Of a DNA stretch of 64,000 bases, positions 35,144 through 63,839 are shown in pieces; position 1 is the stretch's first letter, and the number at the start of each line of letters is the position of its first letter. The notes below the pieces were generated by a model. That model ran no database searches, was not told the origin of the DNA, and worked only from the letters and a program-made list of their open reading frames with translations. A program made the position numbers and the translations under genes. The stretch comes from Tissierellales bacterium (GTDB lineage Bacteria; Bacillota; Clostridia; Tissierellales; Dethiosulfatibacteraceae). The stretch lies in contig JAFGVC010000061.1 in the NCBI GenBank assembly GCA_016938195.1, forward strand, positions 19,365-83,364. The letters run 5' to 3'.

Positions 35144-36217
35144 TTGTTGAAAAAGATAGTAACAATTTTTATTATATGCATAATATTGTTGTCAGCCTAT
35201 TTTTATTTCAATATAGGCGTTGACGAAATTAAATATTGGATAAGCGGTAGCGGTACAATTAGTTTAACTGAAGAAAAGAGCATACCGCTTGAAGATTTCA
35301 AAGGAAAAATTATTTTAAAAGATAGCATCTTCTATAGAATCCATGAAAACATTTTAGAAGCCTATGGATATGATGGTATTTTGCAAGCAAGAAGAGAATT
35401 CGAGTCATTAATAGACAGGCTATTTCTAGGGAGAAATTCCTATGTAAAGACAGTGGACAATAAATTATATTCGGCATTCAATGAAGAAGAAATAATGTTT
35501 ACACTCACAGATAAAGTTGTACTTGGAATTTCTGAAAATAAATACAGTCTGGTTGCTAGCTCAAATCTTGAGGGAACTCAAAATTATCTAGACATATATG
35601 ATATAAATCTTGTTCCTAAAACAACGATTAGTTTTGAGGGGGAGAGATTAATTGATTATCAACAATCCATGCATTCGAATGGGATTATTGTTACGACCTT
35701 CAACTATTTAGGATCAACAGTCACTGCGCATATAAGAGAGGTATTATTAGAGGGCAGCTACCAGGTTTGGATTACAGACTTACCCGGCGAGCTAGCCATG
35801 TTTATTAAATTACAGAAAGATGGTCTTTACGCAGTCACCAATCTAAATCTTTACAAACTCAATAGCAATGGCAAAATACTCTGGCAATATAGCGGATTTG
35901 ATAAAATTAAAGATTTTGAAATCATTGAAAACCAAATTTACATATTGTCTGGAGGTGCCGAAACTGAGCTGCATATCATATCATCCGAGGGCAAGCTGAA
36001 AAATAAAATTACAACGACGGATATTTATAATCAAATACTACCTTTTGAAAAAGGAATTATTCTCTCAGGAAGACAAGATATCGCCTATTTACATAGAGAT
36101 AAAATTGATTCCATCTTATATTCCCCAGAACTGATTCAACATGTTTATGTTGAAGGAGATAGATTGCGGATATTGTTTCAAAATAAATTATCTTCTTATA
36201 AAATTAAGATTAAATGA
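35144..36217 (+). CDS. hypothetical membrane-anchored protein (N-terminal TM, repeat-rich extracytoplasmic domain)
   Basis: TTG start with a single N-terminal TM helix (IVTIFIICIILLSAYFYF). The remainder has beta-strand-rich composition. No catalytic motif recognised. Confidence 0.5.
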   Translation: MLKKIVTIFIICIILLSAYFYFNIGVDEIKYWISGSGTISLTEEKSIPLEDFKGKIILKDSIFYRIHENILEAYGYDGILQARREFESLIDRLFLGRNSYVKTVDNKLYSAFNEEEIMFTLTDKVVLGISENKYSLVASSNLEGTQNYLDIYDINLVPKTTISFEGERLIDYQQSMHSNGIIVTTFNYLGSTVTAHIREVLLEGSYQVWITDLPGELAMFIKLQKDGLYAVTNLNLYKLNSNGKILWQYSGFDKIKDFEIIENQIYILSGGAETELHIISSEGKLKNKITTTDIYNQILPFEKGIILSGRQDIAYLHRDKIDSILYSPELIQHVYVEGDRLRILFQNKLSSYKIKIK

Positions 36218-36223
36218 GGTGAA

Positions 36224-36940
36224 GTGATGAATTATAACATGATTGATATTATTTTAGTTGTATTTGCCCTCTTATTTGTAGTGAATGGATTTAGACGCGG
36301 CTTTATTATGTCGTTATTTAATTTAATTGGTACAATTATAGCATTTTTTGCTGCTCTAAAGTTCACGTATGTTGTGCAAACAGTGTTTCTAAATCAGACT
36401 AATATTTTCGAATTTATTTATAAAAATATTGTCACAAGGGTATCGTCGATGATGGAGCTGATACCGGTAAAAGGTCTTAATCTGGAAACAATATTCAAAG
36501 GTTATAGCAAGCTCCCCTTTGACATTCAAAAAATGTTAGATGAGTACTTAATCAAAAGCAATATTTTAATTAGCCCGGTTAATTATTCAGATGTCCTTGC
36601 AGAAAAAATCACGGGGATTATAATATACGCTTTAAGCTTCATTGTTACTTTTTTGGTGGCCTATTTGCTCCTAATGATTGTTGCAGGCATTTTAAACACA
36701 CTATTCAAGGCACCCATATTAAACTTGGCTAATAGATTTTTAGGCGGTGTTCTCGGACTTGGAAAAGCGGTCGTTATCATCTATATTATTTTTGCATTAG
36801 CATCTCCCTTCATCGTCATTTCGGAAAAATCAAACCCATTGACAACGGCTATTATTGAATCGAAAGCGAGCGAAGTTTTTCTGGAGAATAATATTATTTT
36901 AAATTATCTTTCCTATAAAGGGGTTGTTATCAATCAATAG
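36224..36940 (+). CDS. cvpA: CvpA-family membrane protein
   Basis: N-terminal IDIILVVFALLFVVNGFRRGFI is typical of CvpA. There are 4-5 TM helices. Confidence 0.8.
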   Translation: MMNYNMIDIILVVFALLFVVNGFRRGFIMSLFNLIGTIIAFFAALKFTYVVQTVFLNQTNIFEFIYKNIVTRVSSMMELIPVKGLNLETIFKGYSKLPFDIQKMLDEYLIKSNILISPVNYSDVLAEKITGIIIYALSFIVTFLVAYLLLMIVAGILNTLFKAPILNLANRFLGGVLGLGKAVVIIYIIFALASPFIVISEKSNPLTTAIIESKASEVFLENNIILNYLSYKGVVINQ

Positions 36941-46673: not shown

Positions 46674-47771
46674 TCATTCAAATTTATCATAAAGGATATT
46701 TTCGTCTATAAATCCTTTGTCTTTGAGCAAGGGGATTAAATCATCAATCATCGGAGGGTTGCCGCAGAGGTAAGCCTCCTTGTTGTTTGCATCTAAAATA
46801 TATTTGGAGACTAAATCGGTTACCCTACCTATTTCCCCGTTCCAATTGCATTCAGGTGTAGGTCTGGATAGAACCAGTACAAGCTTAAATTCATACATGG
46901 TTTTTTCGAGTGAGTGAAGCTCATCAATCAAAAATAGGTCTTTCCTTGTACGGGCACCAAAAAAGAAGGTAACTTTTCTCTCAATATTGTTTTCATTCAT
47001 ATATCTTAAAATGCTCATAATAGGCGCAATGCCCGTTCCGATTGCAAACATCAACATATCCTTGTCACCTTCCCGATAATAAAAATCGCCAAAGGGACCA
47101 ACAATAGAAAGCTTATCTCCAACCTTGAGGTATTTGTGAATGTAGGTTGTGCAAATGCCATCCGGGACATAGCCTATAAAAAGTTCGATAGCATGCTTTG
47201 AGCTTGGGGGTGTTGCAATGGAATAAGCACGATAGACTTCCTCGTTTCCCTCATAGGGAGGAGTCAGAATTTGCACGTACTGTCCGGGCTTGTAGTCTAA
47301 TGATTCATTCTCCGGAAGTTTAAAGTTAATTTTTTTAATCTTTGACGTGAGGTCCTCAATACCGGTTACTAGATAAGTGAGCTGTTTGACATTAAAAAGC
47401 TCTTCAGGTATCTCTATTTCTATATCTTGCTTGACTTTTAATTGACAGGAGAGGCGAATTCCGTCAACTCTTTCTTTTTCTGTGACATATCCTTTTTCTG
47501 TGGAAAGAAAAGGACCTCCTCCTGATATGACTTTTACTTTGCAGTAGCCGCAGCTCCCTTTTCCTCCACAAGCGGAAGGGATAAAGATATTTTGTTCATT
47601 CAAGGTTGAAAGCAGAGAATCTCCTCCTTCAACAAGATATTCCTTGCTTTGATTAATAATCAGTTTTTTTGTACCATAATTAGCAATTGTTTTATTTGCA
47701 ATTGATAGCAGAAGGGATAATAATCCGGTAATTGTAGATAGGGTCAGTACCGTTTTCAGTATATTTTCCAT
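46674..47771 (-). CDS. nqrF: NqrF-like subunit: N-terminal TM helix, plant-type 2Fe-2S ferredoxin, FAD/NADH-binding FNR module
   Basis: ACGGKGSCGYCKV...RLSCQ (2Fe-2S), RAYSIATPP (FAD), GTGIAPIMS (NAD). Colinear with Vibrio NqrF but about 40 aa shorter. Confidence 0.85.
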   Translation of the reverse strand: MENILKTVLTLSTITGLLSLLLSIANKTIANYGTKKLIINQSKEYLVEGGDSLLSTLNEQNIFIPSACGGKGSCGYCKVKVISGGGPFLSTEKGYVTEKERVDGIRLSCQLKVKQDIEIEIPEELFNVKQLTYLVTGIEDLTSKIKKINFKLPENESLDYKPGQYVQILTPPYEGNEEVYRAYSIATPPSSKHAIELFIGYVPDGICTTYIHKYLKVGDKLSIVGPFGDFYYREGDKDMLMFAIGTGIAPIMSILRYMNENNIERKVTFFFGARTRKDLFLIDELHSLEKTMYEFKLVLVLSRPTPECNWNGEIGRVTDLVSKYILDANNKEAYLCGNPPMIDDLIPLLKDKGFIDENILYDKFE

Positions 47772-47780
47772 GTTATTCTC

Positions 47781-48368
47781 CTATTGTATTTGGACAATGC
47801 CTGAAAAACCAATAAAGGCAAGCGCCATCAGACCGGTTATAATCAAGGTGATTCCGGGACCCTCAAGACCTTTTGGGACGGGATTGTTTTTTATCTTTTG
47901 CCTAATCCCTGCCATTGCAACAATTGAAAGCATCCATCCGAGCCCGGATCCCAGACCAAAAGCGATAGATTGAAGAAAATTGTAATCGCGAATCACCATA
48001 AATAATGAAACACCAAGGATCGCACAGTTGACAGTGATTAAAGGAAGAAAAATACCAAGGGCATAATATAATCCTTCAAAATATCGATCAATAATCATTT
48101 CTACAAGCTGCACAAAAGCGGCTATGACAACAATGAATACAATATATCTCAAGTAAGCTAATCCCAGGGGAGCTAAGATATAATGATAAATTATATAGTT
48201 GATAAGTGTGGTGAATCCTAAGACAAATGTCACAGCTTGACCCAGACTCAAAGAAGTTTTAATATCACTGCTGATGGCAATAAATGAACACATGCCCAAA
48301 AAATTGGATAGTATCATATTATTCGTAAAAATTGATGCAAAGAATATAACGACAGGATTAATTTCCAT
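47781..48368 (-). CDS. nqrE: NqrE/RnfA-family membrane subunit
   Basis: GIFLPLITVNCAILG, GSGLGWMLSIVAMAGIRQK and GITLIITGLMALAF are close to Vibrio NqrE. Confidence 0.9.
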   Translation of the reverse strand: MEINPVVIFFASIFTNNMILSNFLGMCSFIAISSDIKTSLSLGQAVTFVLGFTTLINYIIYHYILAPLGLAYLRYIVFIVVIAAFVQLVEMIIDRYFEGLYYALGIFLPLITVNCAILGVSLFMVIRDYNFLQSIAFGLGSGLGWMLSIVAMAGIRQKIKNNPVPKGLEGPGITLIITGLMALAFIGFSGIVQIQ

Positions 48369-48988
48369 TATGATTTAGCTCCTCCTTGTTCAGAATTCTC
48401 TTTAAAGATATTTTTTGAAATCCATATAACAATGGCCAACATGAAAAAGGCTCCCGGAGGCATAATCATCAAAGTCCATGAGACCCAAGCATCTCCCAAA
48501 ACAGGATAGCCAAATAAACTCCCAAAGCCTAATAATTCTCTGACAAAAGCGATTAGCATAAGAATAATAGCATAGCCTGCACCCGATGCGAGCCCGTCGA
48601 GAAATGAATAAAGAGGAGGGTTTTTTTGAGCAAAGCTTTCACATCGTCCCATGATGATACAATTGGTAATGATGAGTCCGACATAAGGGCCAAGAGCTTC
48701 ACTAATAGACGGATAATAGGCTTTTAGAAAAATATCAACAATGATCACATACGCTGAAATAATCAATGTTTGAACCATCATTCTAATGTGTTTAGGTGTA
48801 AACTGGCGAATCAGAGAAACGGTAAGTTCAGAAAAAGCGGTTACAAACATAAGCCCAAGTCCCATAACTAATGAATTCATCATCAGATTAGTGACTGCCA
48901 GCGCGGAACAAATTCCCAGTATTTGCCTAAATATAGCATTATCTTCCCAAATCCCAAGCGTAATAATTTTTTTTACTTTTTTATTCAC
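48368..48988 (-). CDS. nqrD: NqrD/RnfE-family membrane subunit
   Basis: ILGICSALAVT, GLIITNCIIMGRCESFA, FVRELLGFGSLFG. Confidence 0.9.
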   Translation of the reverse strand: MNKKVKKIITLGIWEDNAIFRQILGICSALAVTNLMMNSLVMGLGLMFVTAFSELTVSLIRQFTPKHIRMMVQTLIISAYVIIVDIFLKAYYPSISEALGPYVGLIITNCIIMGRCESFAQKNPPLYSFLDGLASGAGYAIILMLIAFVRELLGFGSLFGYPVLGDAWVSWTLMIMPPGAFFMLAIVIWISKNIFKENSEQGGAKS

Positions 48989-49595
48989 TTTGGAGGCCTC
49001 CTTTTATATCAGATAGGATGAAAATAATTTGTTGATTAAAAAGATCGATTACTGCTTTGGAAGTGAGTGTAGCACCTGATATTGAGTCTATATTGCTCCC
49101 TATAGCAGGCTTGAACAATAAATTATCTGCACGATTTTCGAAAACAAGAATGTTATCAAACTGCTCAATAAACCATTCCTCATCGATACGACCGCCCAAT
49201 CCGGGTGTTTCAGAATGAGAAAGAAAATCAACACCAAGAATTGTTTTAAATTCAGAGTCAAAAGCGATTAGAGCTGTAATTTTCCCCCACAATCCCGATC
49301 CTTCTACGATAAAGGCGTAACCTATTAATTTTCCATCATCAACAGCTTTAAAATAAGAAATATTATCAATGGTTTTCTCATTAATTTTTTGATTATATTG
49401 TTCATTAATGTTTGTAGTATTAGATGAATCAATGATATTAAATGTTTTCAAAATTTTTGTTTGTTGTTTGAGCTTCGATTGGATTTCAATCCTATCTTTA
49501 GCTAATTCATTAACGATAGCTAGCACTGAAGTGAAAACAATTGTGATTATAATCATAAAAAGGACAGGATACAAAATCCTCTTTTGTCTAGGCAT
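48981..49595 (-). CDS. NqrC/RnfG-like FMN-binding subunit
   Basis: N-terminal TM anchor and an FMN_bind domain with the flavinylation motif DSISGATLTS (49068-49088). Confidence 0.85.
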   Translation of the reverse strand: MPRQKRILYPVLFMIIITIVFTSVLAIVNELAKDRIEIQSKLKQQTKILKTFNIIDSSNTTNINEQYNQKINEKTIDNISYFKAVDDGKLIGYAFIVEGSGLWGKITALIAFDSEFKTILGVDFLSHSETPGLGGRIDEEWFIEQFDNILVFENRADNLLFKPAIGSNIDSISGATLTSKAVIDLFNQQIIFILSDIKGGLQSE

Positions 49596-50544
49596 TTTTC
49601 ACACCCCTTTTTTTAAGGTGTTTTACGGCTTCGTCGGTGATTGGAACAAAAATGTTAGCAATGAGAATGGCAAACATAATTCCTCCCGCAAAGAGTGCGA
49701 AGGCCCTAATGATAACCGTAATTGAACCAATAAGCAATCCATAGACGATACGTCCCTCAAAGGTCTTAGGCGATGTAATGGGATCAGTTGCCATAAAGAC
49801 GGCTCCGAATAAAAGACCACCTGCCAACAGGCCCCATAAAGGATTGGGAACTTGGGGAAGTCCTAAGAGATATAATGTTCCGCTCGTGAGGAAATATCCT
49901 ATTATGACGGAAAACACGGTTTCTTTGTAAGCTACCTTTTTCGTAAGCAGATAAATTGCCGAAAGAATAATCAAAAAAGCAGAAACTTCTCCAATTGAGC
50001 CCGAGACATTTCCGAAAAACAAATCAAAATAAGAAGATAAGACGCCACTTTCTCTATATATCAGCATAGGGGTTGATTGAGCCAGCACATCAATGGGTTC
50101 AGTCGTATAGGTTAAAAAACCTCCCATAAATTGTGTAGCAGGAGCAGACCATTGCGCGGTCAAATATTTGGCAAATGAAACATATACAAAAGCTCTGGCG
50201 GCAGCGGCAGGATTGAAAACATTTTTGCCAAAACCGCCAAAGGTCTCACGAGCAAAGACGATACCGAAAATCATTCCGATAGAAGCAATCCAAAAAGGTG
50301 TTCGAGGAGGTAAGGTTAACGTATATAATAAAGCAGAGACCAATACCGCCCAGGAAAACTTTTTATTCGTATTCCTAATAAAAAGCCATTCAGAGAATAA
50401 AGCTGAAACACAAGATACAATCGTTAAAAGCAATACTCTAAGCCCAAAAGTACCCACAGAAAAGATGAGTATGGGCATTAAGGAATAAAGTACTTTTTTC
50501 ATGGCACCCTGATTCATGAATTTTGTTTTCAATATATTAATCAA
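49588..50544 (-). CDS. RnfD/NqrB-like membrane subunit
   Basis: 318 aa, which is RnfD-like in length. GGFGKNVFNPAAAARAF and FMATDPITSP motifs. The TTG start lies 7 nt after GGAGGAGG. Confidence 0.85.
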   Translation of the reverse strand: MINILKTKFMNQGAMKKVLYSLMPILIFSVGTFGLRVLLLTIVSCVSALFSEWLFIRNTNKKFSWAVLVSALLYTLTLPPRTPFWIASIGMIFGIVFARETFGGFGKNVFNPAAAARAFVYVSFAKYLTAQWSAPATQFMGGFLTYTTEPIDVLAQSTPMLIYRESGVLSSYFDLFFGNVSGSIGEVSAFLIILSAIYLLTKKVAYKETVFSVIIGYFLTSGTLYLLGLPQVPNPLWGLLAGGLLFGAVFMATDPITSPKTFEGRIVYGLLIGSITVIIRAFALFAGGIMFAILIANIFVPITDEAVKHLKKRGVKNA

Positions 50545-50789: not shown

Positions 50790-51017
50790 ATGTCTCTTAC
50801 GCACGCAAAAAAGGGTGAATGCTTCACACTAGAATATATCGAGTCCGGGAACAGGGCTAAACGTAAGCTTCAAGACATGGGCTTGACTCCCGGAGTTAAA
50901 ATATGTGTTGTTTCGAACAGTAGCTTTGGACCGATTATACTTGAATTAAGAGGTTCAAGAATAGCATTAGGAAGAGGATTGGTAGATAAGATAGCAGTTA
51001 GGAGGATTGATGAATGA
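50790..51017 (+). CDS. feoA: ferrous iron transport protein A
   Basis: A 75 aa SH3-like FeoA (LQDMGLTPGVKI). Overlaps the feoB start. Confidence 0.9.
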   Translation: MSLTHAKKGECFTLEYIESGNRAKRKLQDMGLTPGVKICVVSNSSFGPIILELRGSRIALGRGLVDKIAVRRIDE

Positions 51018-52996
51018 ACATGGATATTTTCAAGATTGCCCTTGCCGGCAATCCGAATAGTGGAAAGACAACCTTGTTCAATGCTTTGACAGGCAGTAAT
51101 CATTATGTGGGTAACTGGGCAGGGGTCACAGTAGAAAAAAAAGAAGGACGAATTCAGTTTGCCGAGCATATAATGGATATTGTCGATTTACCGGGTATTT
51201 ATAGTCTTTCTCCTTATACGCTTGAAGAGAAGATTTCAAGAGACTTTATTTTAAGAGAAAATCCTGATGTGGTATTAAATATTGTAGATGCGACTTCATT
51301 AGAAAGAAGCTTATACCTAACATTACAATTAATAGAGCTTGGCAAACCGGTCATTGTTGCACTAAATATGATGGATGAGGCTAAAAAGAAAAATATTGAG
51401 TTAGATCTTCAAAATCTATCTATAGCGCTGGGGGTACCTGTAGTGCCTATTGTCGCATTAAAAAAAGAAGGCATTGAGAAATTGATGCAAGAAATTATAG
51501 ATGCACACCACAATAAAGCAAGTTATCGACCGGTGAAATTTAATTACGGTGATGAGGTAGAGAATTTTGTTAAAGAAGTCGAACTAAAGCTCCCAAAAAA
51601 TCTCAAGGAACAGTATGAATCGCGATGGATTGCTTTAAAATTATATGAGAGAGATAGGGAAATACAAAATCTTGTCAGCCCATTTGAGATGGAAAGCGAT
51701 TTAGAAAGTCCTGATCGAATGGCAAACTTAAGATATAAAGCTATTGGTGATATCGTTAATGGGGTTGCGGCATTGGAACATATTAAATATGATATCAGTA
51801 CGGACCGAATCGATAAGATTATCTTGAACCCATGGATTGGATTACCTATCTTTGGAATTGTAATGTGGGTTGTATTTTTTCTAACCTTTTCAGTAGGTGG
51901 ATATTTTGCAGATAAAGTAGACACTTTTTTTTCGGTATATTTGTCAAATGGCATTTCAGCTATTTTGACTTTTTTACAAGCGTCAGACTGGATGATTTCT
52001 CTGGTAGTGGATGGAATTATTGGAGGGGTCGGCGGTGTGTTGACATTTGTACCGAATATTGCAATTATATTTATTATGATATCTCTCTTAGAGGATACGG
52101 GTTATATGGCAAGAGCGGCCTATCTAATGGATGACATCATGAGCAAAGTAGGGTTAAACGGCAAAGCTTTTATCTCTATGATTTTAGGCTTTGGATGTAA
52201 TGTTCCGGCCATTATGGCCACCAGAACAATAGAAAATGAAAATGATCGAATGATTGCTATATTGATTAACCCATTTATGTCTTGTGGTGCCAGATTTCCT
52301 ATATATGTTTTGTTTTCATCTGTCTTTTTCCCAGGCAATGAAACAGCGGTTACCTTTTCCCTCTATATTTTAGGAATTGCGATGGCAATGCTTTTCGCTT
52401 ATATTTTTAGAAAGACTTTGTTCAAAGGAGAAAAAAGTCCTTTTATTATGGAGCTACCACCTTACAGATTTCCCAAAACAAGTGATTTATTAATCCATAT
52501 ATGGGAAAAAGTGAAAGGATATTTGATTAAAGCGGGGACAGTTATATTTGCAGCGAGTGTTGTGATTTGGGTCGTGCTTAATTTTAATACAACGGGCTTG
52601 GTAGATATTACAGAAAGCTTTGGGGCGACGATTGGCCGTTTTATTGCACCAATCTTTAAGCCTCTTGGTTTTGGAACTTGGCAAAGTGCACTTTCATTGA
52701 TATCAGGCATCGTAGCTAAGGAAATAGTGGTGGCTAATACATCTATCATTTATGGACTGGCAGAAAATGCAGGAAATGCTGAAGTAATGGCCGTACTTTC
52801 TCAAGCCTTTTCAAAAGTTTCTGCCTATGCTTTTATGGTTTTTGTGTTGCTTTACACCCCATGCGTCGGAGTAATCGGTGTCATTAAAAGAGAAACAAAT
52901 TCTTGGAAATGGACGGGTTTTTCAGTGCTTTACCAATTTTTGGTGGCATGGATTATGGCTTTTCTCTTTTACAATGTTGGACAACTCATATTTTAA
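51014..52996 (+). CDS. feoB: ferrous iron transporter FeoB
   Basis: N-terminal G-domain GNPNSGKTT, DLPG, NMMD, followed by a polytopic membrane domain. Confidence 0.96.
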   Translation: MNMDIFKIALAGNPNSGKTTLFNALTGSNHYVGNWAGVTVEKKEGRIQFAEHIMDIVDLPGIYSLSPYTLEEKISRDFILRENPDVVLNIVDATSLERSLYLTLQLIELGKPVIVALNMMDEAKKKNIELDLQNLSIALGVPVVPIVALKKEGIEKLMQEIIDAHHNKASYRPVKFNYGDEVENFVKEVELKLPKNLKEQYESRWIALKLYERDREIQNLVSPFEMESDLESPDRMANLRYKAIGDIVNGVAALEHIKYDISTDRIDKIILNPWIGLPIFGIVMWVVFFLTFSVGGYFADKVDTFFSVYLSNGISAILTFLQASDWMISLVVDGIIGGVGGVLTFVPNIAIIFIMISLLEDTGYMARAAYLMDDIMSKVGLNGKAFISMILGFGCNVPAIMATRTIENENDRMIAILINPFMSCGARFPIYVLFSSVFFPGNETAVTFSLYILGIAMAMLFAYIFRKTLFKGEKSPFIMELPPYRFPKTSDLLIHIWEKVKGYLIKAGTVIFAASVVIWVVLNFNTTGLVDITESFGATIGRFIAPIFKPLGFGTWQSALSLISGIVAKEIVVANTSIIYGLAENAGNAEVMAVLSQAFSKVSAYAFMVFVLLYTPCVGVIGVIKRETNSWKWTGFSVLYQFLVAWIMAFLFYNVGQLIF

Positions 52997-53198
52997 TAAT
53001 ATATTTCATTAATTATATTAGTTTAACTTTTAAAATGATTACAACTATGATATAATATATTGTAGTTTATGAAATGGAGGTGACCAAATGCCTGAAGAGT
53101 TCAAAGCTGGATGCCAAAGGCCTTCAGTACAAGCGAACAATGTTGAGGAAAAGACAAAAGAAAATGTAGCGATTGAAAGTAAAAAGGAGGGAATGAGT

Positions 53199-53810
53199 AT
53201 GGTTAAAGTGGGTAAACCTGCACCGGATTTTACAGCACCTGGTTTTTTTGAGGGAAAATTTGCAAATTTTAAACTTTCTGAGTATCTTGGACAATGGGTT
53301 GTCCTTTGTTTCTACCCAGGAGATTTTACATTCGTCTGAGCGACTGAAGTTTCAGCAGTTGCTGAAAAGAATGAAGAGTTTAAAAAATTAGGGGTACAAG
53401 TTTTATCAATGAGCGTAGATAGTGTTTTTGTACACAAAATATGGAATGAAAATGAATTATCTAAAATGACGGGTAAGGACATTCCTTTCCCAATGTTATC
53501 TGATGCAGGCGGAACCATAGGCAAGATGTATGGGATTTACGATGAAGAAGGTGGCGTAGAGACAAGGGGCCGATTTTTAATAGATCCTGATGGTGTTATT
53601 CAAGGATTTGAAGTTTTAACCCCACCAGTTGGCAGAAATGTTAGTGAAACATTAAGACAAGTTCAAGCGTTCCAGTTGGTAAGAGCTTCAAAAGGAACTG
53701 AAGCGACTCCTTCCGGATGGAAACCCGGAAAGAAAGTATTAAAGCCAGGACCGGATTTGGTTGGAAATGTCTGGAAAGAATGGAAAGTATCCGAAGCTTT
53801 TGATGAATAA
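53199..53810 (+). CDS. prxU: selenocysteine-containing peroxiredoxin (PrxU-like); UGA 53337-53339 decoded as Sec47
   Basis: The two ORF-track ORFs (53088-53339 and 53409-53810) share a frame. Read-through gives FYPGDFTFV-U-ATE, i.e. the PxxxTxxC motif with UGA at the Cys position. A SECIS-like hairpin lies 10 nt downstream. A GGAGGG SD sits 7 nt before ATG 53199. An in-frame ATG at 53088 also has an SD. Confidence 0.85.
53350..53367 (+). other. putative bacterial SECIS apical hairpin
   Basis: The perfect inverted repeat TTTCAGCA/TGCTGAAA forms a 7-bp stem with an AGUU loop. It begins at the 11th nt after the UGA. Confidence 0.65.
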
Positions 53811-53823
53811 GCATACTATTTTG

Positions 53824-53856
53824 GAGGTTACAGCTCATCGCTGTAACCTCTTTTAT
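53824..53856 (+). terminator. intrinsic terminator after prxU
   Basis: GAGGTTACAGC-TCATC-GCTGTAACCTC followed by TTTTAT. Confidence 0.8.
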
Positions 53857-53975
53857 ATTTAAAGTAAACTTCATGTAAATTTTTCTTATGAGTGTTCATT
53901 TTTCAACACTTATAAATTCACGATATATACAACACCCCAAAAATATTATATAATAGTTAAAAGAGTGAGGAGCAA

Positions 53976-55847
53976 ATGATGAATAAAAGCATCGAATTTA
54001 ACACGAGTGAATTCCATAAAGGCAAATTATACGACGCTTATCATTTTTTTGGAGCGCATGTCGTATCTCATCAAGAAAGAAAAGGTGTGTATTTTCGATT
54101 ATGGGCGCCGCATGCGCAGCGTGTTTCTTTAGTTGGCTCTTTTAATTATTGGAATGATACGGCTAATCCAATGGAAAAAATTACCGATTCAGGGATATGG
54201 GAGTGTTTTTTCGAAAATATTGGAACTGGAGAAGTATATAAATATAAAATTTTTACACCTGAAGGCGGGATATTGTTTAAGGCTGATCCTTATGGTTTTT
54301 TTTCAGAAGTGAGACCCCAAAACTCTTCAATCGTATTTGATTTAAATCATTATACTTGGAAGGATAAAAATTGGATTAATCAGAGAAACAACAGAAATAG
54401 CTTGTGTCAGCCGATGAATATATACGAGATACACGCAGGATCTTGGAAAAGAAAAGAAGATAATAATTTTTTAAATTATAGGGAATTGGCGGAAGAATTA
54501 GTTCCTTATTTAAAAAAAATGAATTTTAATTATCTTGAAATCATGCCTTTGATGGAACACCCTTTTGATGGATCCTGGGGATATCAGACGACGGGTTACT
54601 ATTCAATCACAAGTCGGTACGGAAATCCGGAAGATTTGATGTACTTGATAGATCGTTGTCATCAAGAATCGATTGGTGTTATTTTGGATTGGGTACCCGG
54701 CCATTTCTGTAGGGACGACCATGGGCTAATGAATTTTGATGGAACTGAGTTATATGGCAAAATTGACCATCCGAATTGGGGTACAAAAAAATTCGATTTT
54801 TCAAAAAGTGAGGTTAAAAATTTTTTAATATCAAACGCATTGTTTTATTTTGCCAAATACCATATTGATGGCATTAGAGTAGATGGCGTGACATCTATCT
54901 TGCAGCTTAATTTTGGAATGGATGGAAACCCATTACGCAATATTAATAATGGCTATGAGGATTTGGATGGGATTGATTTTTTAAAAGAATTAAACCAAGC
55001 TGTATTTAAGAAATATCCTTTTGCAATCATGGCGGCAGAAGAATCGACTGATTGGCCTTTGGTTACTTATCCAACGCATGACGGAGGATTGGGTTTTAAT
55101 TATAAATGGAACATGGGATGGATGAATGATACTCTTTCTTATATTAAAAATGATCCTCTATTTCGCAAATATTTCCATGATAAGATAACCTTTTCGTTAG
55201 TATATGCGTTTAGCGAAAATTTTATTTTACCGTTTTCTCATGATGAGGTTGTCCATGGAAAAAAATCCCTAATTGCAAAGAGCCAAGGAAGTTATGAAGA
55301 TCAGTTCAAAACTTTAAAGCTTCTATCCATGTATCAAATGACTCATCCGGGTAAAAAATTAAGCTTTATGGGAAATGAGTGGGCCCCTTTTATTGAATGG
55401 AAGTATGACGATGCACTTGAATGGTTTTTGCTAGAGTATCCGATGCATGCTAAACACAGAAAGTTTATCGAAGATATCAATAGCCTTTATATGAATGAAA
55501 AGGCCTTGTGGTATATAGATAATAGTTGGGATGGCTTTGAGTGGATTGATTCAGACAATAGAAATCAAAGTATATTTTCTTATATTAGAAGAGATAGACA
55601 AGATTTTGTTATTATAATTTTGAACTTTACGCCAATAGTGTATGACAAATTCAGGATGGGCGTACCGGAGGAAGGACAATATGATGTTGTTTTAAACTCG
55701 GATTCAGAGCTTTATGTCGGTATAGGGATGACCAATCAACAAAACATTCAATCGGAGGCTATTGAAAAAAATGGTCGAGAAAACTCCATATTGATAAGGC
55801 TTCCAGGATTGACAGGATTAATAATAAAAAAGACCAAGAATAAGTGA
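53976..55847 (+). CDS. glgB: 1,4-alpha-glucan branching enzyme
   Basis: GH13 regions DWVPGHF, GIRVDGV, AEEST, SHDEV. Confidence 0.95.
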   Translation: MMNKSIEFNTSEFHKGKLYDAYHFFGAHVVSHQERKGVYFRLWAPHAQRVSLVGSFNYWNDTANPMEKITDSGIWECFFENIGTGEVYKYKIFTPEGGILFKADPYGFFSEVRPQNSSIVFDLNHYTWKDKNWINQRNNRNSLCQPMNIYEIHAGSWKRKEDNNFLNYRELAEELVPYLKKMNFNYLEIMPLMEHPFDGSWGYQTTGYYSITSRYGNPEDLMYLIDRCHQESIGVILDWVPGHFCRDDHGLMNFDGTELYGKIDHPNWGTKKFDFSKSEVKNFLISNALFYFAKYHIDGIRVDGVTSILQLNFGMDGNPLRNINNGYEDLDGIDFLKELNQAVFKKYPFAIMAAEESTDWPLVTYPTHDGGLGFNYKWNMGWMNDTLSYIKNDPLFRKYFHDKITFSLVYAFSENFILPFSHDEVVHGKKSLIAKSQGSYEDQFKTLKLLSMYQMTHPGKKLSFMGNEWAPFIEWKYDDALEWFLLEYPMHAKHRKFIEDINSLYMNEKALWYIDNSWDGFEWIDSDNRNQSIFSYIRRDRQDFVIIILNFTPIVYDKFRMGVPEEGQYDVVLNSDSELYVGIGMTNQQNIQSEAIEKNGRENSILIRLPGLTGLIIKKTKNK

Positions 55848-55854
55848 GGTAAAT

Positions 55855-58266
55855 ATGTTTCTAGATAAAGAAGCTTTTAAAAAAGAGTACAAAGATCGAT
55901 TTAAAGAAATAACAGGTGAAATTTTTGAAGAGAGCACATTAGAAGATCGTTACATTGTCCTGACTTCTCTTATTATGAAATATGTAGCGCCATATATGGC
56001 TGAAAGCCATTCGAAAATGAACAAGGAGAATAATGGGAAAAGAGTCTATTATTTTTCGATGGAGTTTTTGATAGGAAAGCTATTGATGATGAACTTAATG
56101 AACCTAGGTGTTTTGGATATAGTTTCAGAGGGATTAATTGATTTAGGAATCGATATAAACGAGTTAGAGGCCGTTGAAAAAGATGCTGGACTCGGAAATG
56201 GAGGATTAGGTAGATTAGCCGCTTGTTTCATGGATTCACTTGCTTTTCTAAATATACCCTCTGTTGGCATGGGAATCAGATACCGTTATGGCCTATTCGA
56301 ACAAAAAATCATTGATGGACATCAAGTCGAATTACCGGACAAATGGCTCCAAAGAGAATACAGATGGGAGATCAAAAAAACGTCAAAATCTGAGATTGTA
56401 AAATTTTATGGACATATCAAATTAGAAGAAATCCATGGCAAACTTCAGGTCATTCATGAAAACTATGAACCGGTTGCAGCGATACCCTATGATATTCCAA
56501 TTATAGATTATGATTCCAAAGACGTTAACTATTTGAGATTATGGAGTGCGGAAAGTGTGGATGATTTTGACTTAGCATCCTTTAACCGTGGAAACTATCT
56601 CAATGCGGTCAAGAATAAAGCAGCAGCAGAGGCCATAACTCATGTGCTTTATCCCAATGATTCAAATTACGAAGGTAGACTGCTCAGACTTAAACAACAG
56701 TATTTTTTTGTCAGTGCAGGGCTCAAGGGGATTATTAGAAGATATAAAACCAACAATGAAACGTTTAATGAAATTGAAAAGAAAATACAAATTCAAATAA
56801 ATGACACACATCCATCCCTGGTGATTCCTGAATTAATGAGAATTCTCATGGATGAAGAAGGTTTTGAATGGAAAGAATCATGGGACAAAGTCACTGAAAT
56901 TTGTGCTTATACAAATCATACGATATTGCCGGAAGCCCTTGAAACTTGGCCCGTTGATATGATGAAAAACCTGTTGCCTAGAATTTATATGATTATCGAT
57001 GAGATTAATAGAAGATTTATAGAGGAATGTACTGCAGAGGAAAGAAAGGTTAGAATTGAAAATTCGATTTTAAGAGATGGCGTTGTTCATATGGCTAATC
57101 TTGCCATTATAGGATCGAAATCTGTCAATGGCGTAGCCAAGCTACATACTGAAATTATTATCAAAGAAACCTTTAAGGGATTATATCAGATCTATCCTTG
57201 GAAATTTAATTCGAAGACGAATGGTGTCAGTCACCGAAGATTTCTGATGAAGGCCAATCCATACCTTGGCAATATGATTTCCGGCGCAATAGGAGAAGGT
57301 TGGAAAAAAAATGCCGAAAAGCTTCAAGAGCTTGAAGCGCATTGCGGAAAAGAAGACTGTTTGGAAAAATTATATCAGGCTAAAAGAAAAAACAAGGAAA
57401 GATTAGCGGCTTATGTTGAAAAAACTATGGGAATTCATCTCGATGTAGATTCTATATTTGATGTTCATGTTAAGCGGATTCATGAATATAAAAGGCAGCT
57501 ATTAAATGTCATTCATATCATGTACTTGTATGATAAAATCAAGCATGAAGACATGGTAATCGTTCCTAGGACGTTCATTTTTGCGGGAAAAGCAGCTCCC
57601 GGTTATTATATGGCTAAAAAAATCATTCAATTGATCAATAGCTTGGCTGAAATTGTAAATCAAGATAGAAAAGTGAGTCAATATATGAAAGTGATTTTCT
57701 TAGAAAACTTTAATGTGTCATTGGGAGAGTTGATTTATCCGGCTGCGGATGTATCCGAACAAATTTCGACCGCCGGAAAAGAGGCCAGTGGTACCGGAAA
57801 CATGAAATTCATGATGAATGGTGCATTGACTTTGGGAACTTTAGACGGCGCAAACGTTGAAATAGCAGAGAGAGTGGGCATGGATAACATTTTCATCTTT
57901 GGACTAAAATCAGAAGAGGTTTTGGCTCATCAAAAAAGGCAGGATTATTGCTCATATGATGACTACCATTCTAATCCGGATTTACGAAAAACCATCAACC
58001 ATTTTGTGGATGGATTTTTCAGATATGATATCGGAGAGTTCAAGGAAATCTATGATAGCTTAATCACTCACAATGATACCTATTTCGTGATAAAAGATTT
58101 TGAATCATACAAAGAAGCTCAAAAAAGAATCGAAACAACCTATCAAGATCGTCGACTTTGGTTTTCAATGACACTTAAAAATATTGCCAAATCTGGTTAT
58201 TTTTCAAGTGATAGAGCTATTTTGGATTATGATAGAGACATATGGCATATAAAAGGGGGCAATTAA
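55855..58266 (+). CDS. glgP: glycogen/maltodextrin phosphorylase
   Basis: 803 aa, with the PLP Lys in [15 protein letters not shown]. Confidence 0.96.
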
Positions 58267-58267
58267 A

Positions 58268-59383
58268 ATGAATAATCAAAAGTGTATTGCGATGCTTTTA
58301 GCCGGAGGACAAGGCAGCCGGCTCAAAAATTTGACGGTGAATAATGCAAAACCCGGGGTCATGTTTGGTGGCAAGTACCGAATCATAGACTTTAGCTTGA
58401 GCAATTGCTTTCACTCTGATATTTTCACGGTGGGTGTGTTAACACAGTATAAACCGCTTTTGTTGAACCGTTATATTGGCAATGGTAGCTCTTGGGCGCT
58501 TGACAAGATAGATCAGGGGGTCTATATTTTGCCGCCTTATGTGGATAAACAGGGAGGTAATTGGTATTTTGGGACGGCGGATGCCGTTTATCAAAATTTA
58601 GCATTTATGGATATGTACAATCCGGAATACGTCCTGATTCTTTCCGGGGACCATATCTATAAAATGGATTATGCAAAAATGCTAAAATACACCATAGAGA
58701 AGGACGCTGACTTAACCGTATCCGTGATGGAGGTAGAATGGGAGGAAGCGAGTCGATTCGGGATTACAAACCTTGGAGAAGATATGAGGATTGTGACCTT
58801 TGATGAAAAACCCGAAAAACCAAAAAATAATATGGCTTCTATGGGAATTTATATATTTCGTTGGTCCATTTTGAGAGAAGCGCTTATTCGTGACGCAAAT
58901 GATGAAAGCTCAGACCATGATTTCGGCAAAAATATCATCCCAATGCTTCTCAATGAAAACAAAAGTATATTCGCTTATTTATTTGAGGGCTATTGGCGTG
59001 ATGTTGGCACGATAGAAAGCTATTATAAAGCCAATATGGATTTGCTAAGCGATTCAAAGGAATTTGATTTATCTTCCAAGGAAATGAGAATTTATTCAAA
59101 CAATCGAAACAGTCAGCCTCATTACATAGGGGAGTGTGCCAATATTGATAATAGCTTGATATGCGACGGGTGTTTAATTGAAGGACATGTGACACATTCA
59201 ATTTTGTCATATGATGTGACTGTTGGTAAAAATGCGGTGATTAAGGATTCTATTTTATTTAACAAAGTGGTTGTTGAAGAAGGTGCTGTGATTGAAAAAG
59301 CCATTATTGGAGAAAATATAAGGATAGAGAAAAACAAGAAGATTGGAAATGAAAACTCTGAAGAAATAATAGTCATCGCTTAA
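58268..59383 (+). CDS. glgC: glucose-1-phosphate adenylyltransferase
   Basis: [23 protein letters not shown], and a C-terminal left-handed beta-helix. Confidence 0.95.
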
Positions 59384-59398
59384 CAGGAGGAAGGGATT

Positions 59399-60517
59399 AT
59401 GAAGCATTTAGTGGGTATAATAATTAATAGTCCAAAGCAAAAGGATTTAGAATTAATGGTTCGTCACAGAAGTATTCATACTGTTCCTATAGGTGGAAAA
59501 TACCGTTTAATTGATTTTTCTCTGTCTAATATCGTTAATTCAGGAATCTCTAAAATTGGTGTGATTGGTTCATACATGTATCGCTCATTAGTTGATCATC
59601 TCGGTTCGGGAGAAGAATGGAATCTTAGCAGCAAGAGCAATGACTTAGCTATTCTTCACGGCGGTAAGAATATTAAAATTGGAGAAATCACTAGGATTAA
59701 TCTGCAGGATTTCATTGATAATGAAGCTTTCTTTACAAAAGTATCTTCATCTGTTGAGGATGTCGTTTTGTGTGGCTGCAACATTATCTGTAACTTTGAT
59801 CTTAAAGAGGCTATAAAATTCCATAGAGAAAACCAAGCTGATATTACGATGGTTCACAAAGAGGATTATACAGGAGAGCTTTCAGACAATGAAGCGGTCA
59901 TGGAAGTCATGGACCATAAAGTCACAAAGCTTGGCTATAGTGCTGATCGACGGGCTCAATCTCACAACGTGTACGCAGATATGATGATAATCAAAAAAGA
60001 GCTTCTTCAAAATATAATTGAAGATGTAAAGACGACCGGAGAAATTGATTTGCTCGATGTAATCACGAATAATTTAGAAAACTTGAATATTTTTGCTTAT
60101 CCGATAGAAGGATATTTTAAAATCATTAATTCGCGTAAATCCTATTTTGATTGTTCGATGGAGTTGCTTCATGCCGAAATCCAAAGAGAAATATTTCACG
60201 GCGAAAGAAAAATTTACACTAAAACGAAGGACAATCATCCGGCTATTTATAGCGTTAATTCAAAAATTAAAAATTCTCTTGTTGCTAGTGGAACCATTAT
60301 CAACGGATCGGTTGAAAATGCGATTATTTCAAGAGAGGCCATTATTGAAGAAGGCGTCAAAATCAAAAATAGTGTGATAATGCAGAATTGTGTGATTGAA
60401 AAAGACACTATTATTGTGAATGCAATACTTGACAAGTACGTCAGAGTGACAAGCGGAAAGGTTCTTGTGGGGACTGAAAAAGAACCCTTGATGATTAGGA
60501 AGGATTCAGTGATATAG
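59399..60517 (+). CDS. glgD: glucose-1-phosphate adenylyltransferase subunit GlgD
   Basis: A GlgC paralogue lacking the GGxGxRL loop (IGGKYRLIDFSLSN is retained). Follows glgC. Confidence 0.88.
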   Translation: MKHLVGIIINSPKQKDLELMVRHRSIHTVPIGGKYRLIDFSLSNIVNSGISKIGVIGSYMYRSLVDHLGSGEEWNLSSKSNDLAILHGGKNIKIGEITRINLQDFIDNEAFFTKVSSSVEDVVLCGCNIICNFDLKEAIKFHRENQADITMVHKEDYTGELSDNEAVMEVMDHKVTKLGYSADRRAQSHNVYADMMIIKKELLQNIIEDVKTTGEIDLLDVITNNLENLNIFAYPIEGYFKIINSRKSYFDCSMELLHAEIQREIFHGERKIYTKTKDNHPAIYSVNSKIKNSLVASGTIINGSVENAIISREAIIEEGVKIKNSVIMQNCVIEKDTIIVNAILDKYVRVTSGKVLVGTEKEPLMIRKDSVI

Positions 60518-60528
60518 GAGGTGATTTC

Positions 60529-61950
60529 ATGAAAGTGCTATATGCTTCATCTGAAGTAACGCCTTTTGCTAAGAGTGGTGGCTTAGCAGACGTAGCGGGT
60601 TCATTACCCAAGGCGCTCAGAATGAATGAGATTGACATCAGGGTGATTATGCCTTTATATGGGGATATGCCTACCGAGTATAGAAGCATGATGAAAGAAA
60701 TCGGAGAATATGAAATTAGTTTAAATTGGCGTAGACAGAATTGCCAAGTGTATACCCTTGAAAAAGATAGCGTTATCTATTATCTTTTATCTAATGAATA
60801 TTATTTTGGCAGAAAAGGACTATACGGGCATTATGATGAGGCAGAAAGGTTTTTGTTTTTTTCGAAGGCAATCCTTGAATTTATCCCTCGCTTTGATTTT
60901 TGGCCGGATATTATTCATTGCAACGATTGGCAGACAGCTATTATTCCATTTTTGCTGAACAAGCATTATCGACAGCATTATCAAAAAATGAAAACTATTT
61001 TAACCATTCATAACATAAAATATCAAGGCGTTTATGGGAAAAATACGCTCATGGATATTTTAGGACTGCGCGAAGACGAAATATCAAATGACATTGAATT
61101 TAGGGGAGACATTAATATTTTGAAAAGCGGCATCTATAACGCTGATTGGGTAACGACTGTTTCACCCACTTACGCCAAAGAGCTTGAATACGAATATTTC
61201 GGGGAAGGCCTGCAAGGCGTTATTAAAGAGAATAGTTATAAAGTGTCAGGTATTTTGAACGGCGTAGATTATAATGCTTTCAGCCCGAAAACTGACAAGA
61301 ATATATATGTCAATTACACGCGGTCCATTAAGAAGAAGGAAGAAAATAAAATGAAGCTCATTGAAGAGCTTGAGCTTGAAAATAATCCCAATAAACCTTT
61401 GGTAGGAATTATCTCAAGACTTGATGAATTAAAAGGCATTGATTTGATAATTTGTGTTATATATGAAATGATGCAGCTTGGAATCAATCTAGTTGTTCTG
61501 GGAACAGGCGAAAAAAAATACGAGAATGCGTTAAAAAATGTTGAGAACAGCTTCCCTCAAAATGTATCCGTGAATATTGGCTTTGACACGGCTATGGCTT
61601 CAAAGATTTATGCAGCCAGTGACCTCATGATGATGCCTTCAAGGGTAGAGCCTTGTGGATTAGCCCAAATTATAGCTTTGAAATACGGAACATCTCCTGT
61701 GGTGAGGAGAACGGGCGGACTCAACGATACCATTACAAAATATTCAGTCAGTGCCAACGCAGGAAATGGTTTTGTTTTTTCAGCTTATAATGCACACGAG
61801 ATGCTTTCGGAGCTGAATAGAGCCATCTGTATTTATAGAGTCAACAAACACGCCTGGCAAAATTTAAAAATGAATGCCTTCAAGTCTAATTTTGATTGGA
61901 CGCTTTCAGCCGTTAAATATGCAGAATTATATCATAAAATTTATGAATAA
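60529..61950 (+). CDS. glgA: glycogen synthase
   Basis: SEVTPFAKSGGLADV (KxGGL) and a GT5 C-terminal domain. Confidence 0.95.
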   Translation: MKVLYASSEVTPFAKSGGLADVAGSLPKALRMNEIDIRVIMPLYGDMPTEYRSMMKEIGEYEISLNWRRQNCQVYTLEKDSVIYYLLSNEYYFGRKGLYGHYDEAERFLFFSKAILEFIPRFDFWPDIIHCNDWQTAIIPFLLNKHYRQHYQKMKTILTIHNIKYQGVYGKNTLMDILGLREDEISNDIEFRGDINILKSGIYNADWVTTVSPTYAKELEYEYFGEGLQGVIKENSYKVSGILNGVDYNAFSPKTDKNIYVNYTRSIKKKEENKMKLIEELELENNPNKPLVGIISRLDELKGIDLIICVIYEMMQLGINLVVLGTGEKKYENALKNVENSFPQNVSVNIGFDTAMASKIYAASDLMMMPSRVEPCGLAQIIALKYGTSPVVRRTGGLNDTITKYSVSANAGNGFVFSAYNAHEMLSELNRAICIYRVNKHAWQNLKMNAFKSNFDWTLSAVKYAELYHKIYE

Positions 61951-61961
61951 AGGACTTAGTA

Positions 61962-63839
61962 ATGAATGAAGCTTTTAATTCTCAGAATCAATTTTATAAA
62001 GCACCTTTTGGCGCGGTGGAAATAGGTTCGAAAATCATTTTCAGAGTTAGATTGAACGCTGAGAAAGAGACGCGATGTGAGTTAAGAACCTTTTGCGAAA
62101 AAAACAACGATAGCCTTGAAATGAAAATTGAAAGCACCGAGGGAGGAGCGTATGTTTATCAATGTACCTATGAGACGCCTCTGACACCTTGTGTTCTTTT
62201 TTACCATTTTTGTGTTTATCAAAATGGCAGAACCTTTTTTATCGGAAACAATTCTGAAAAATTAGGAGGCGCATGCGTTTATTATGATAATGATCCGGTT
62301 TCTTATCAGATGACCGTACATGGCAAAAGCATTCATGTAGCTGACTGGTACAAAGAAGGTGTTATATATCAGATTTTTGTTGATCGTTTTTATAAAGCAG
62401 GAGCTGAAGATCTATACCAAGGAAGAAAAGGATTTGTCAAATATACAAACTGGCATGACAAAAATCGATATATCAAAAATGCAAAGGGTGAGATTGTTTA
62501 TTGGGATATCTACGGTGGAAATATAAAGGGGATTATTGAAAAAATAGATTACCTCAAAGAATTAGGGGTCTCGATTCTATATCTCAACCCTATTTTTGAA
62601 GCGAACAGCAACCATAAATATGACACGGCTGATTATGAGAAAATTGACCCGGGCTTTGGCACTGAGTCAGATTTTGAGGCGTTGACTGAAAAATGCAATC
62701 AAAATGGAATAAACATAATACTGGACGGCGTGTTCAGCCACGTCGGCAATGACAGTAAGTATTTCAATATGAAGGGAAATTATGACACGCTGGGGGCTTT
62801 TCAGTCGAAAGAATCACCCTATTTTGATTGGTTTAGATTCAACAATTATCCCTATGATTATGAGTGTTGGTGGAAAAATCTGACCTTACCAAATGTAGAT
62901 GAAATGAACACTTCTTATTTAGACTATATACTCACAGGAGAAAACAGCATTGTAAAAAGATGGCTCAAAAAAGGAGCTAAGGGCTGGCGGTTGGATGTTG
63001 CAGATGAACTGCCTGACGAGTTTATTGGCTTGTTGAAGGAAGAAACGCGAAAGCAAGATCCTGATAGTATTGTTCTTGGAGAAGTATGGGAAGATGCATC
63101 TAACAAAGAAAGCTATGGACAGCTAAGAAAATATTTCTTGGGCAGTGAGCTTGATTCAGTTATGAACTATCCGTTTAGATCGGTCTTTATTGATTTCATA
63201 CTTGCAAAGTCAGGAGCTGAAAAAGCTTTAAACAAAATGATGTCTCTATACGAAAACTATCCGCGCGAATATTTTTTTGCGGCTATGAATCTTATTGGCA
63301 CCCATGATACCGTAAGAGCGATGACCATTTTCGGAGAAGGACCGCAAGAATACAAAATAGATGATGATGACGCCTATCATTATGAGCTGCCGATTAAAAA
63401 TTACAAATGTGCGACCAAACGTATGAAGTTAATGGCATTTATACAAGTGATATTTCCCGGCGTACCGTGCATTTATTATGGAGACGAGGTCGGCATGCAA
63501 GGTTTTCGAGATCCATATTGCAGAGGGACATATCCTTGGGGAAGAGAAAACTTGGAATTATTGGAATGGTACCGCAAGATATTTCAGTTTAGGGCTTCTT
63601 CGAAAGCACTTATAAAAGGGGAATGGTCGCCTTACTTTTGTGAAGGCTCCATATTCAGCATTATGAGAGAATATGAAGAGGAAAAATTGTTATGTGCTGT
63701 CAACGTCGCATTTGAAGCTAAAGAGTTAGCACTCCCATTAGACACAATACACGAGGTGTTATCCAATCGACAAGTTAAAAGCAAAATAATATTAGATCCA
63801 CTTTCTTGCCACATTTTTAAGCTTACTTCACAACAATAG
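61962..63839 (+). CDS. GH13 alpha-glycosidase (neopullulanase/cyclomaltodextrinase-like)
   Basis: GH13 regions DGVFSHVG, GWRLDVADEL, GEVWED, GTHDTVR, with an N-terminal extra domain. Confidence 0.85.
   Translation: MNEAFNSQNQFYKAPFGAVEIGSKIIFRVRLNAEKETRCELRTFCEKNNDSLEMKIESTEGGAYVYQCTYETPLTPCVLFYHFCVYQNGRTFFIGNNSEKLGGACVYYDNDPVSYQMTVHGKSIHVADWYKEGVIYQIFVDRFYKAGAEDLYQGRKGFVKYTNWHDKNRYIKNAKGEIVYWDIYGGNIKGIIEKIDYLKELGVSILYLNPIFEANSNHKYDTADYEKIDPGFGTESDFEALTEKCNQNGINIILDGVFSHVGNDSKYFNMKGNYDTLGAFQSKESPYFDWFRFNNYPYDYECWWKNLTLPNVDEMNTSYLDYILTGENSIVKRWLKKGAKGWRLDVADELPDEFIGLLKEETRKQDPDSIVLGEVWEDASNKESYGQLRKYFLGSELDSVMNYPFRSVFIDFILAKSGAEKALNKMMSLYENYPREYFFAAMNLIGTHDTVRAMTIFGEGPQEYKIDDDDAYHYELPIKNYKCATKRMKLMAFIQVIFPGVPCIYYGDEVGMQGFRDPYCRGTYPWGRENLELLEWYRKIFQFRASSKALIKGEWSPYFCEGSIFSIMREYEEEKLLCAVNVAFEAKELALPLDTIHEVLSNRQVKSKIILDPLSCHIFKLTSQQ

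Follow-up and report, generated by a model that had tools for sequence, protein, structure and literature searches.

Selenocysteine (Sec)-containing peroxiredoxins (Prx), with a TxxU active site, are among the characterized prokaryotic selenoproteins (PMC13188914 and PMC9312934, both citing Soehling et al. 2001). As an example, peroxiredoxin CLOST_2406 of Clostridium (Acetoanaerobium) sticklandii carries Sec84 in a protein of 240 amino acids (PMC3091704, Table 2), and the genome of the same organism contains the full Sec machinery (PMC3091704); in Desulfococcus multivorans a Sec-Prx was annotated with a split locus tag (PMC5109826). Here we describe a gene of this type, prxU, found at positions 53088-53810 of the plus strand in a 64-kb stretch of contig JAFGVC010000061.1 (the window in the following, i.e. 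the whole stretch of DNA that was analysed). On the evidence of its sequence and of its relatives, we hold it very probable that it is an intact, monocistronic gene for a selenocysteine peroxiredoxin of the AhpC/Prx1 structural class, in which an in-frame UGA codon is decoded as Sec.

The locus is a further member of a known family, PrxU having been known since 2001 and being represented by a curated NCBIfam equivalog (NF040737). The PrxU of Eubacterium (Peptoclostridium) acidaminophilum and that of the window share membership of the NF040737 family, Sec in the PxxxTxxU motif, the absence of a C-terminal resolving Cys and a selenocysteine insertion sequence (SECIS) directly downstream of the Sec codon; they differ in the host, which for the window is an uncultured Tissierellia relative of Dethiosulfatibacter. 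With C. sticklandii CLOST_2406 the likeness is one of architecture, namely Sec84 in 240 amino acids in both cases, and the locus of A. pronyense, congeneric with A. sticklandii, is 75% identical to that of the window. The closest database homologues of the window PrxU are 79-84% identical. Selenoprotein biology as known is left unchanged by the findings reported here; mildly new are the nested conserved translation starts, an N-terminal arm with an invariant Cys and the mistranslation of the Sec codon as Trp (W) in databases, all of them family-wide rather than specific to this locus.

The elements on which the assignment is based are the following, all on the plus strand.

53088-53810, plus strand: prxU coding sequence, long form, with a predicted product of 240 amino acids including Sec84 and the stop codon TAA at 53808-53810 (412 bits on NF040737).
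53337-53339, plus strand: UGA codon of the predicted Sec84, the peroxidatic residue (from the sequence, with TGA in 80/80 related loci besides the window).
53350-53367, plus strand: predicted bacterial SECIS hairpin, in which 53350-53356 pair with 53361-53367 around an AGUU loop (53357-53360), 17 nucleotides (nt) separating the loop from the UGA.

An earlier note on this DNA had described two open reading frames (ORFs), 53088-53339 and 53409-53810, lying in one frame and split only by the TGA at 53337-53339, and the sequence is indeed as claimed, with no frameshift between them. Read-through gives VVLCFYPGDFTFV before and ATEVSAVAEK after the TGA (over a longer stretch, LGQWVVLCFYPGDFTFV before and ATEVSAVAEKNEEF after), so that the codon coincides with the peroxidatic Cys of the PxxxTxxC motif of peroxiredoxins, which here becomes PGDFTFV-U-ATE, i.e. 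PxxxTxxU. The 240-residue form (ATG 53088) matches the NF040737 model (peroxi_PrxU) with 412 bits, at a cutoff of 270 and over profile positions 2-232 of 233, in agreement with the PrxU-type selenoprotein originally proposed; the form of 203 residues from ATG 53199, with the TGA taken as Cys, reaches 392 bits on the same model and covers profile positions 35-232 only. The score on the AhpC equivalog TIGR03137 is 172 bits, under the cutoff of 272, and the Pfam matches are AhpC-TSA, Redoxin and 1-cysPrx_C. Since both halves contribute to the 412 bits on a curated hidden Markov model, and TGA is present in 80/80 related loci, the position of the stop codon is far beyond chance. The downstream fragment was also considered as a gene of its own and rejected, its ATG (53409) being kept in only 23/81 sequences and no Shine-Dalgarno (SD)-like motif being present in the preceding 20 nt.

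How such a locus fares in annotation can be seen in three related contigs, namely L081 and L082, which are Logan assemblies of the runs SRR13394436 and SRR13394437, and L083, from a JGI sample. The organism of the window is represented solely by metagenome assemblies. In all three the gene callers' product is an AhpC-TSA fragment of 83 amino acids, and in L081, the only one of the three that reaches far enough, a second fragment of 133 amino acids was called too. The expectation that the locus would by default be annotated as fragments or as a pseudogene is thus borne out for these public assemblies, but it is too general, because a curated PrxU model exists and many metagenome pipelines give a full-length protein with a spurious Trp. 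The locus is best annotated as a single, probably functional gene for a selenoprotein of 240 amino acids, codon 84 being marked as a translation exception, rather than as two AhpC fragments.

The same contigs bear on the possibility that the TGA is a sequencing or assembly error for a true TGC or TGT, for which nothing specific speaks beyond the fact that a Cys codon is one base away. L081 and L082, which derive from separate runs, contain the TGA and show 0 mismatches to the window over 16,942 and 7,303 nt, respectively; L083, a distinct strain that is 97% identical to the window (83 differences in 2,778 nt), also has TGA, and the adjoining SECIS fits the family consensus. The TGA therefore stood up to the resequencing check, i.e. 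two independent assemblies and a sister strain, and the probability of an error is vanishingly small.

Conservation of the UGA was assessed in a scan of the GTDB collection, taken as one genome per species, which gave 80 loci that are 70-84% identical. Their hosts belong to Clostridia, Tissierellia, Syntrophomonas, Dehalococcoidia, Desulfobacterota and Syntrophales, Sphaerochaetaceae, Cloacimonadales and KSB1. The catalytic codon is TGA in 80/80 loci and is followed, again in 80/80, by an open frame of 155-160 codons to the next stop. With the window as reference, the part beyond the UGA has a median pN of 0.12 and a median pS of 0.82 over the loci (pN and pS being non-synonymous and synonymous divergence), and for the part ahead of the UGA the medians are 0.15 and 0.77; as the two sets of values are alike, purifying selection acts with equal strength on the two parts. 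A second disruption (an extra stop or a frameshift) was looked for in the 80 loci and none was found, which agrees with the absence of decay that had been claimed. These data are difficult to reconcile with a pseudogene, i.e. with an ordinary Cys-peroxiredoxin in which a TGY-to-TGA nonsense mutation has occurred and the downstream part is decaying, as the two fragments from generic gene callers and the lack of visible Sec machinery in the window might suggest: the same TGA is shared across many phyla and kept in the 97%-identical strain, and the part beyond it is free of additional stops and frameshifts and under undiminished selection. As the constraint on the synonymous sites of the hairpin is, furthermore, confined to the UGA forms (see below), we regard the pseudogene as very unlikely.

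A different picture seems at first to emerge from protein databases, where the residue at the catalytic position is W in 109 and Cys in 8 of the 120 nearest cluster representatives, as would be expected if UGA were recoded genome-wide, to Trp or Gly (code 4 or 25). The DNA tells otherwise. One of the W proteins, P0015, is encoded on four contigs (L084-L087) that have TGA followed by the same hairpin, and the database W is thus a UGA translated as Trp. The W proteins come mostly from contigs of 1-2 kb, and we infer that a code-4 model, picked by metagenome gene callers on such short contigs, explains the W. Trp would, besides, be incapable of the chemistry required of a peroxidatic residue. As for the window itself, 9/43 long ORFs end in TGA, used as an ordinary stop, and prxU is the only gene in it with a conserved domain across a TGA. 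The GyrB encoded at 13855-15762 places the organism in Tissierellia: its identity is 98% with a JGI metagenome protein and 86% with the GyrB of Dethiosulfatibacter aminovorans, the closest named relative. Tissierellia are not known for recoding. Genome-wide recoding is accordingly judged extremely unlikely, and what remains is a systematic artefact, by which the Sec codon of PrxU is shown as Trp in metagenome-derived protein collections.

Support at the RNA level for decoding of the UGA as Sec comes from the sequence that follows it. The segments TTTCAGCA and TGCTGAAA (53350-53367), which begin 10 nt past the TGA, had been noted as an inverted repeat with the position of a SECIS; since a loop of 2 nt is impossible, the repeat corresponds to a stem of 7 base pairs (bp) and to the AGUU loop already given in the note. 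The hairpin was analysed in an alignment of 81 sequences (78 distinct), with positions counted from the U of UGA. It is paired in 97.6% of the alignment cells, and its covariation score is above those of 500/500 shuffles and of every slid control. Pair 18-27, formed by two 4-fold-degenerate wobble sites, stays intact throughout, as AU (70 sequences), GC (7) or GU (1). The wobble sites of the loop are near-fixed, with A at position 21 in 75/78 and U at position 24 in 77/78, unlike the adjacent 4-fold sites 6 and 9, which vary freely. The published criteria for bacterial SECIS elements (bSECIS) are a loop of 3-9 nt with G within its first two positions and then G or U, a stem of 4-16 bp, a UGA-to-loop distance of 16-37 nt and a minimum free energy (MFE) of at most -7.5 kcal/mol (PMC13188914, Fig. 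2A). The window hairpin, with a loop of 4 nt (A-G-U-U), 7 bp, a spacing of 17 nt and -8.0 kcal/mol, lies in range on every count. Taken together, the comparison supports the prediction that 53350-53367 is a bacterial SECIS, conserved and constrained at the RNA level.

A natural control is provided by six Cys-form orthologues that have TGC or TGT at the catalytic codon (L088-L093). Of the Cys forms, 3/6 can make pair 18-27, versus 78/78 of the UGA forms (Fisher p=2e-4), none has A at position 21 (0/6, p=2e-7), and their loop sequences are CTTG, CATT, GGTC, GGTA, GATC and CGTT. Since the hairpin constraint is absent from the Cys forms, it is tied to the UGA. The family thus offers a naturally controlled case, Sec versus Cys forms, of a SECIS stem that is co-encoded with a conserved peptide. 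In comparison, the SECIS of Escherichia coli fdhF has a bulged U and a long lower stem, and neither is found in the window hairpin.

Several observations weigh against the assignment and have to be set beside this evidence. The conserved peptide V/I-S-A-V-A-E-K by itself fixes five of the seven pairs of the stem (the stem being, with respect to the bSECISearch consensus, largely co-encoded with SAVAEK), so that the independent RNA-level evidence is reduced to two wobble-wobble pairs and two loop wobble sites. For this region RNAfold returns another hairpin as the MFE structure, in which nt 3-10 pair with nt 20-27, and the z-score of the local fold is only -1.7; the SECIS assignment rests on comparison, not on thermodynamics. 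Rfam gave no real match around the site, whether searched with the gathering threshold or with E values of up to 10. Finally, no tRNA-Sec, selA, selB or selD is encoded in the 64-kb window, which contains no tRNA of any kind, and the capacity of the host to decode UGA as Sec is what we infer from the gene and its relatives. As to the hairpin preferred by RNAfold, it was considered as the SECIS and discarded, since for two of its pairs only about 37% of the sequences are able to pair, and it does no better than shuffles. In the folding check that had been suggested, the program thus returns a rival that is not conserved; the conserved element, with covariation, is the hairpin named in the note.

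That no Sec machinery is seen in the window would also fit a true PrxU orthologue whose UGA is not, or is inefficiently, decoded in this organism, the Sec trait having been recently lost, with near-cognate read-through or a truncated product as the outcome. Loss of the Sec trait is common in bacterial evolution, but it normally leads to a Sec-to-Cys change or to decay of the gene. Here neither the UGA nor the SECIS nor the ORF beyond it shows damage, all three agree with the family consensus (7/7 pairs in the hairpin and the AGUU loop), and the UGA is kept in the 97%-identical sister strain. A lost Sec trait is therefore very unlikely, and decoding as Sec stays the preferred reading. Other TGA-split genes, as an independent sign of the Sec trait, were sought in the 64-kb window and none was found; the only other long pair in the same frame, 35135-36940, was set aside as probably two adjacent genes because the second ORF has its own start.

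Linkage of prxU to the Sec machinery is seen elsewhere in the family. When tRNA-Sec and sel genes were searched for in all 93 loci, they were found in one only (L059), a metagenome-assembled genome of Sphaerochaetaceae. In this locus about 165 nt separate prxU (6001-6723, plus strand) from the divergent gene for tRNA-Sec (5747-5836, minus strand), beyond which are selA (4400-5740, minus strand, 496 bits) and selB (2603-4396, minus strand, 297 bits), with selD (1629-2594, plus strand, 339 bits) alongside. An ISNCY transposase is encoded downstream of prxU in the same locus (7775-9208).

With respect to the protein, its nearest relatives of solved structure belong to the typical 2-Cys peroxiredoxins (4fh8, 5zte, PRDX2 and AhpC) and align with residues 36-225 of the prxU product at E values of 1e-49 to 1e-36, and residues 1-35 have no counterpart among solved structures. 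The window PrxU shares with the typical 2-Cys Prx (AhpC/Prx1; 4fh8, 5zte, 1qmv, 1we0) the fold class and the active-site motif. It differs from them in the predicted Sec at the place of the peroxidatic Cys, in an extra disordered N-terminal arm that contains an invariant Cys, in scoring below the AhpC cutoff, and at the two positions given here.

53307-53309, plus strand: codon of Cys74 (LCFYP), an invariant second Cys that is Phe in typical Prx (from the family alignment, the strand being aligned to VLFFYP in solved Prx).
53706-53708, plus strand: codon of Thr207, at the resolving-Cys position of typical 2-Cys Prx (from alignments to 4fh8, 5zte and 7kj1).

The C-terminal sequence TEATPSGWKPG, in which the absence of a resolving Cys had been remarked upon, does lack it: TEATPSGW aligns with GEVCPAGW of the solved structures (4fh8, 5zte, 7kj1), and Thr207 takes the place of the resolving Cys of the C-terminal VCP motif by which typical 2-Cys Prx are recognized. 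In the PrxU family alignment Cys9 and Cys74 are both invariant. The AlphaFold2 model of a Cys-form orthologue has a mean predicted local distance difference test score (pLDDT) of 86 with a confident Prx core; its N-terminal arm is disordered (pLDDT below 50) and gives no placement of Cys9.

The start of the gene calls for a correction of the earlier description, according to which the product begins at ATG 53199 and has 203 residues with Sec47. That start is conserved, but it is internal to a longer gene, which begins at ATG 53088 and encodes 240 residues with Sec84. The features that define the two nested starts are these.

53076-53082, plus strand: Shine-Dalgarno sequence GGAGGTG of the long-form start (an SD-like GGAGG is kept across loci, codons -12/-11 being mostly G-G).
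53091-53123, plus strand: N-terminal motif PEEFKAGCQRP, with the Cys9 codon at 53112-53114 (Cys and Pro invariant in 79/79; predicted to be disordered).
53184-53190, plus strand: internal in-frame Shine-Dalgarno sequence AAGGAGG (a match of at least 5 nt in 78/79 loci, the full 7-mer in 63/79).
53199-53201, plus strand: internal start codon, Met38, of the 203-residue short form (ATG 46 codons before Sec in 78/79).

The frame upstream of ATG 53199 is open in all loci and opens with [M/L/V]PEEFKxGCxRP, the conserved ORF being about 37 residues longer at the N-terminus than the 203-residue form in the window and in 80/80 loci. Within this motif the entropy at third codon positions is 0.9-2.0 bits, far above that at first and second positions, which indicates that the motif is protein-coding. 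The long-form start codon, eight codons before the Cys, is ATG in 58 loci, TTG in 13 and GTG in 6, and is preceded by the SD sequence. As to the internal SD sequence, a control segment 30 nt upstream shows no SD-like match in 65/81, and the Lys/Glu codons at the internal SD are shifted to AAG/GAG (188:70, versus 618:1309 in the gene body). Since both starts are conserved together with their SD sequences, both appear to be under selection, and the internal SD and ATG (53184-53201) probably yield the 203-residue form as well. The published PrxU of E. acidaminophilum is reportedly of 203 amino acids, with Sec47. In the literature searched, a search that did not reach the original 2001 PrxU paper, no description of the N-terminal arm or of dual starts was found.

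The mechanism that we propose combines these elements. The 18-nt hairpin (7-bp stem, AGUU loop), 10 nt past the UGA, would recruit SelB with Sec-tRNA(Sec), and the ribosome would insert Sec84 rather than terminate at 53337-53339. In the protein, Sec84 would stand in for the peroxidatic Cys, and its selenolate would attack H2O2 or an organic hydroperoxide to give a selenenic acid. A thiol would then resolve the selenenic acid, and the final reduction would fall to a reductant of the thioredoxin type. These steps follow from established peroxiredoxin/selenoperoxidase chemistry (PMC8533274), and the curated name of the NF040737 family is 'thioredoxin-dependent peroxiredoxin'. With Thr207 at the place of the canonical C-terminal resolving Cys, resolution would have to use another thiol, i.e. 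that of the reductant directly, Cys9 or Cys74. The N-terminal Cys arm and the nested starts are candidates for a role at this step. One could imagine that the long and the short form are both produced and that Cys9, present in the long form only, serves as an N-terminal resolving thiol, which would substitute for the lost C-terminal Cys by forming a selenenylsulfide with Sec84, or as a docking or hand-off site for the reductant; this suggestion is a tentative one and rather less probable than its opposite.

Two further elements, together with the neighbouring genes, concern expression of the gene.

53029-53056, plus strand: candidate sigma-70-like promoter (TTTAAA, 16-nt spacer, TATAAT, with TG before the -10; 10/12 matches in a consensus scan), its function being putative.
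53823-53861, plus strand: strong intrinsic-terminator-like hairpin (53823-53851, 12 bp, 6 GC pairs) with a T-rich tail to 53861.

The prxU gene looks monocistronic, with the promoter-like site ahead of it and the terminator-like hairpin behind it. It is flanked by feoAB (50790-52996) on one side and by a glycogen operon (53976-63839) on the other, and a uniform GC content (about 35%) gives no indication of an island. The promoter region, when scanned for palindromes, showed AT-rich repeats only. A conserved neighbour or a dedicated reductant was also looked for across the 80 loci, and no neighbour occurs in more than 9/80. In the P0015 lineage (L084-L087) a gene for a glutaredoxin of 87 amino acids is found divergently upstream of prxU, with a MerR/TipAS regulator close by; these neighbours may hint at the reductant or at regulation in that lineage. 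Among the Cys-form loci, prxU adjoins in 3/6 (L089, L090 and L092) a gene for a Lactamase_B and Rhodanese fusion, which we take to be persulfide-dioxygenase-like, and in L089 genes for an isochorismatase and a rubrerythrin lie downstream of prxU.

As to the rest of the window, the plus-strand operon directly downstream of prxU (53976-63839) is a full glycogen metabolism operon, with glgB, glycogen phosphorylase, glgC, glgD, glgA and an enzyme of the alpha-amylase family. On the minus strand, just upstream of feoAB (46674-50544), is a cluster for a membrane redox complex of the Rnf/Nqr type, which comprises an NqrF-like Fer2/FAD/NAD subunit, two Rnf-Nqr subunits, an FMN_bind subunit and an RnfD/NqrB-like subunit. 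In the region 11396-19862 (minus strand) the sizes and order of the ORFs resemble the origin-proximal arrangement dnaA-dnaN-recF-gyrB-gyrA, in which GyrB alone was checked and the others are guessed from ORF length. A T-box leader (RF00230) is found at 5265-5473 on the minus strand, with 121.5 bits at a gathering score of 93, upstream of the minus-strand ORF 3943-5217.

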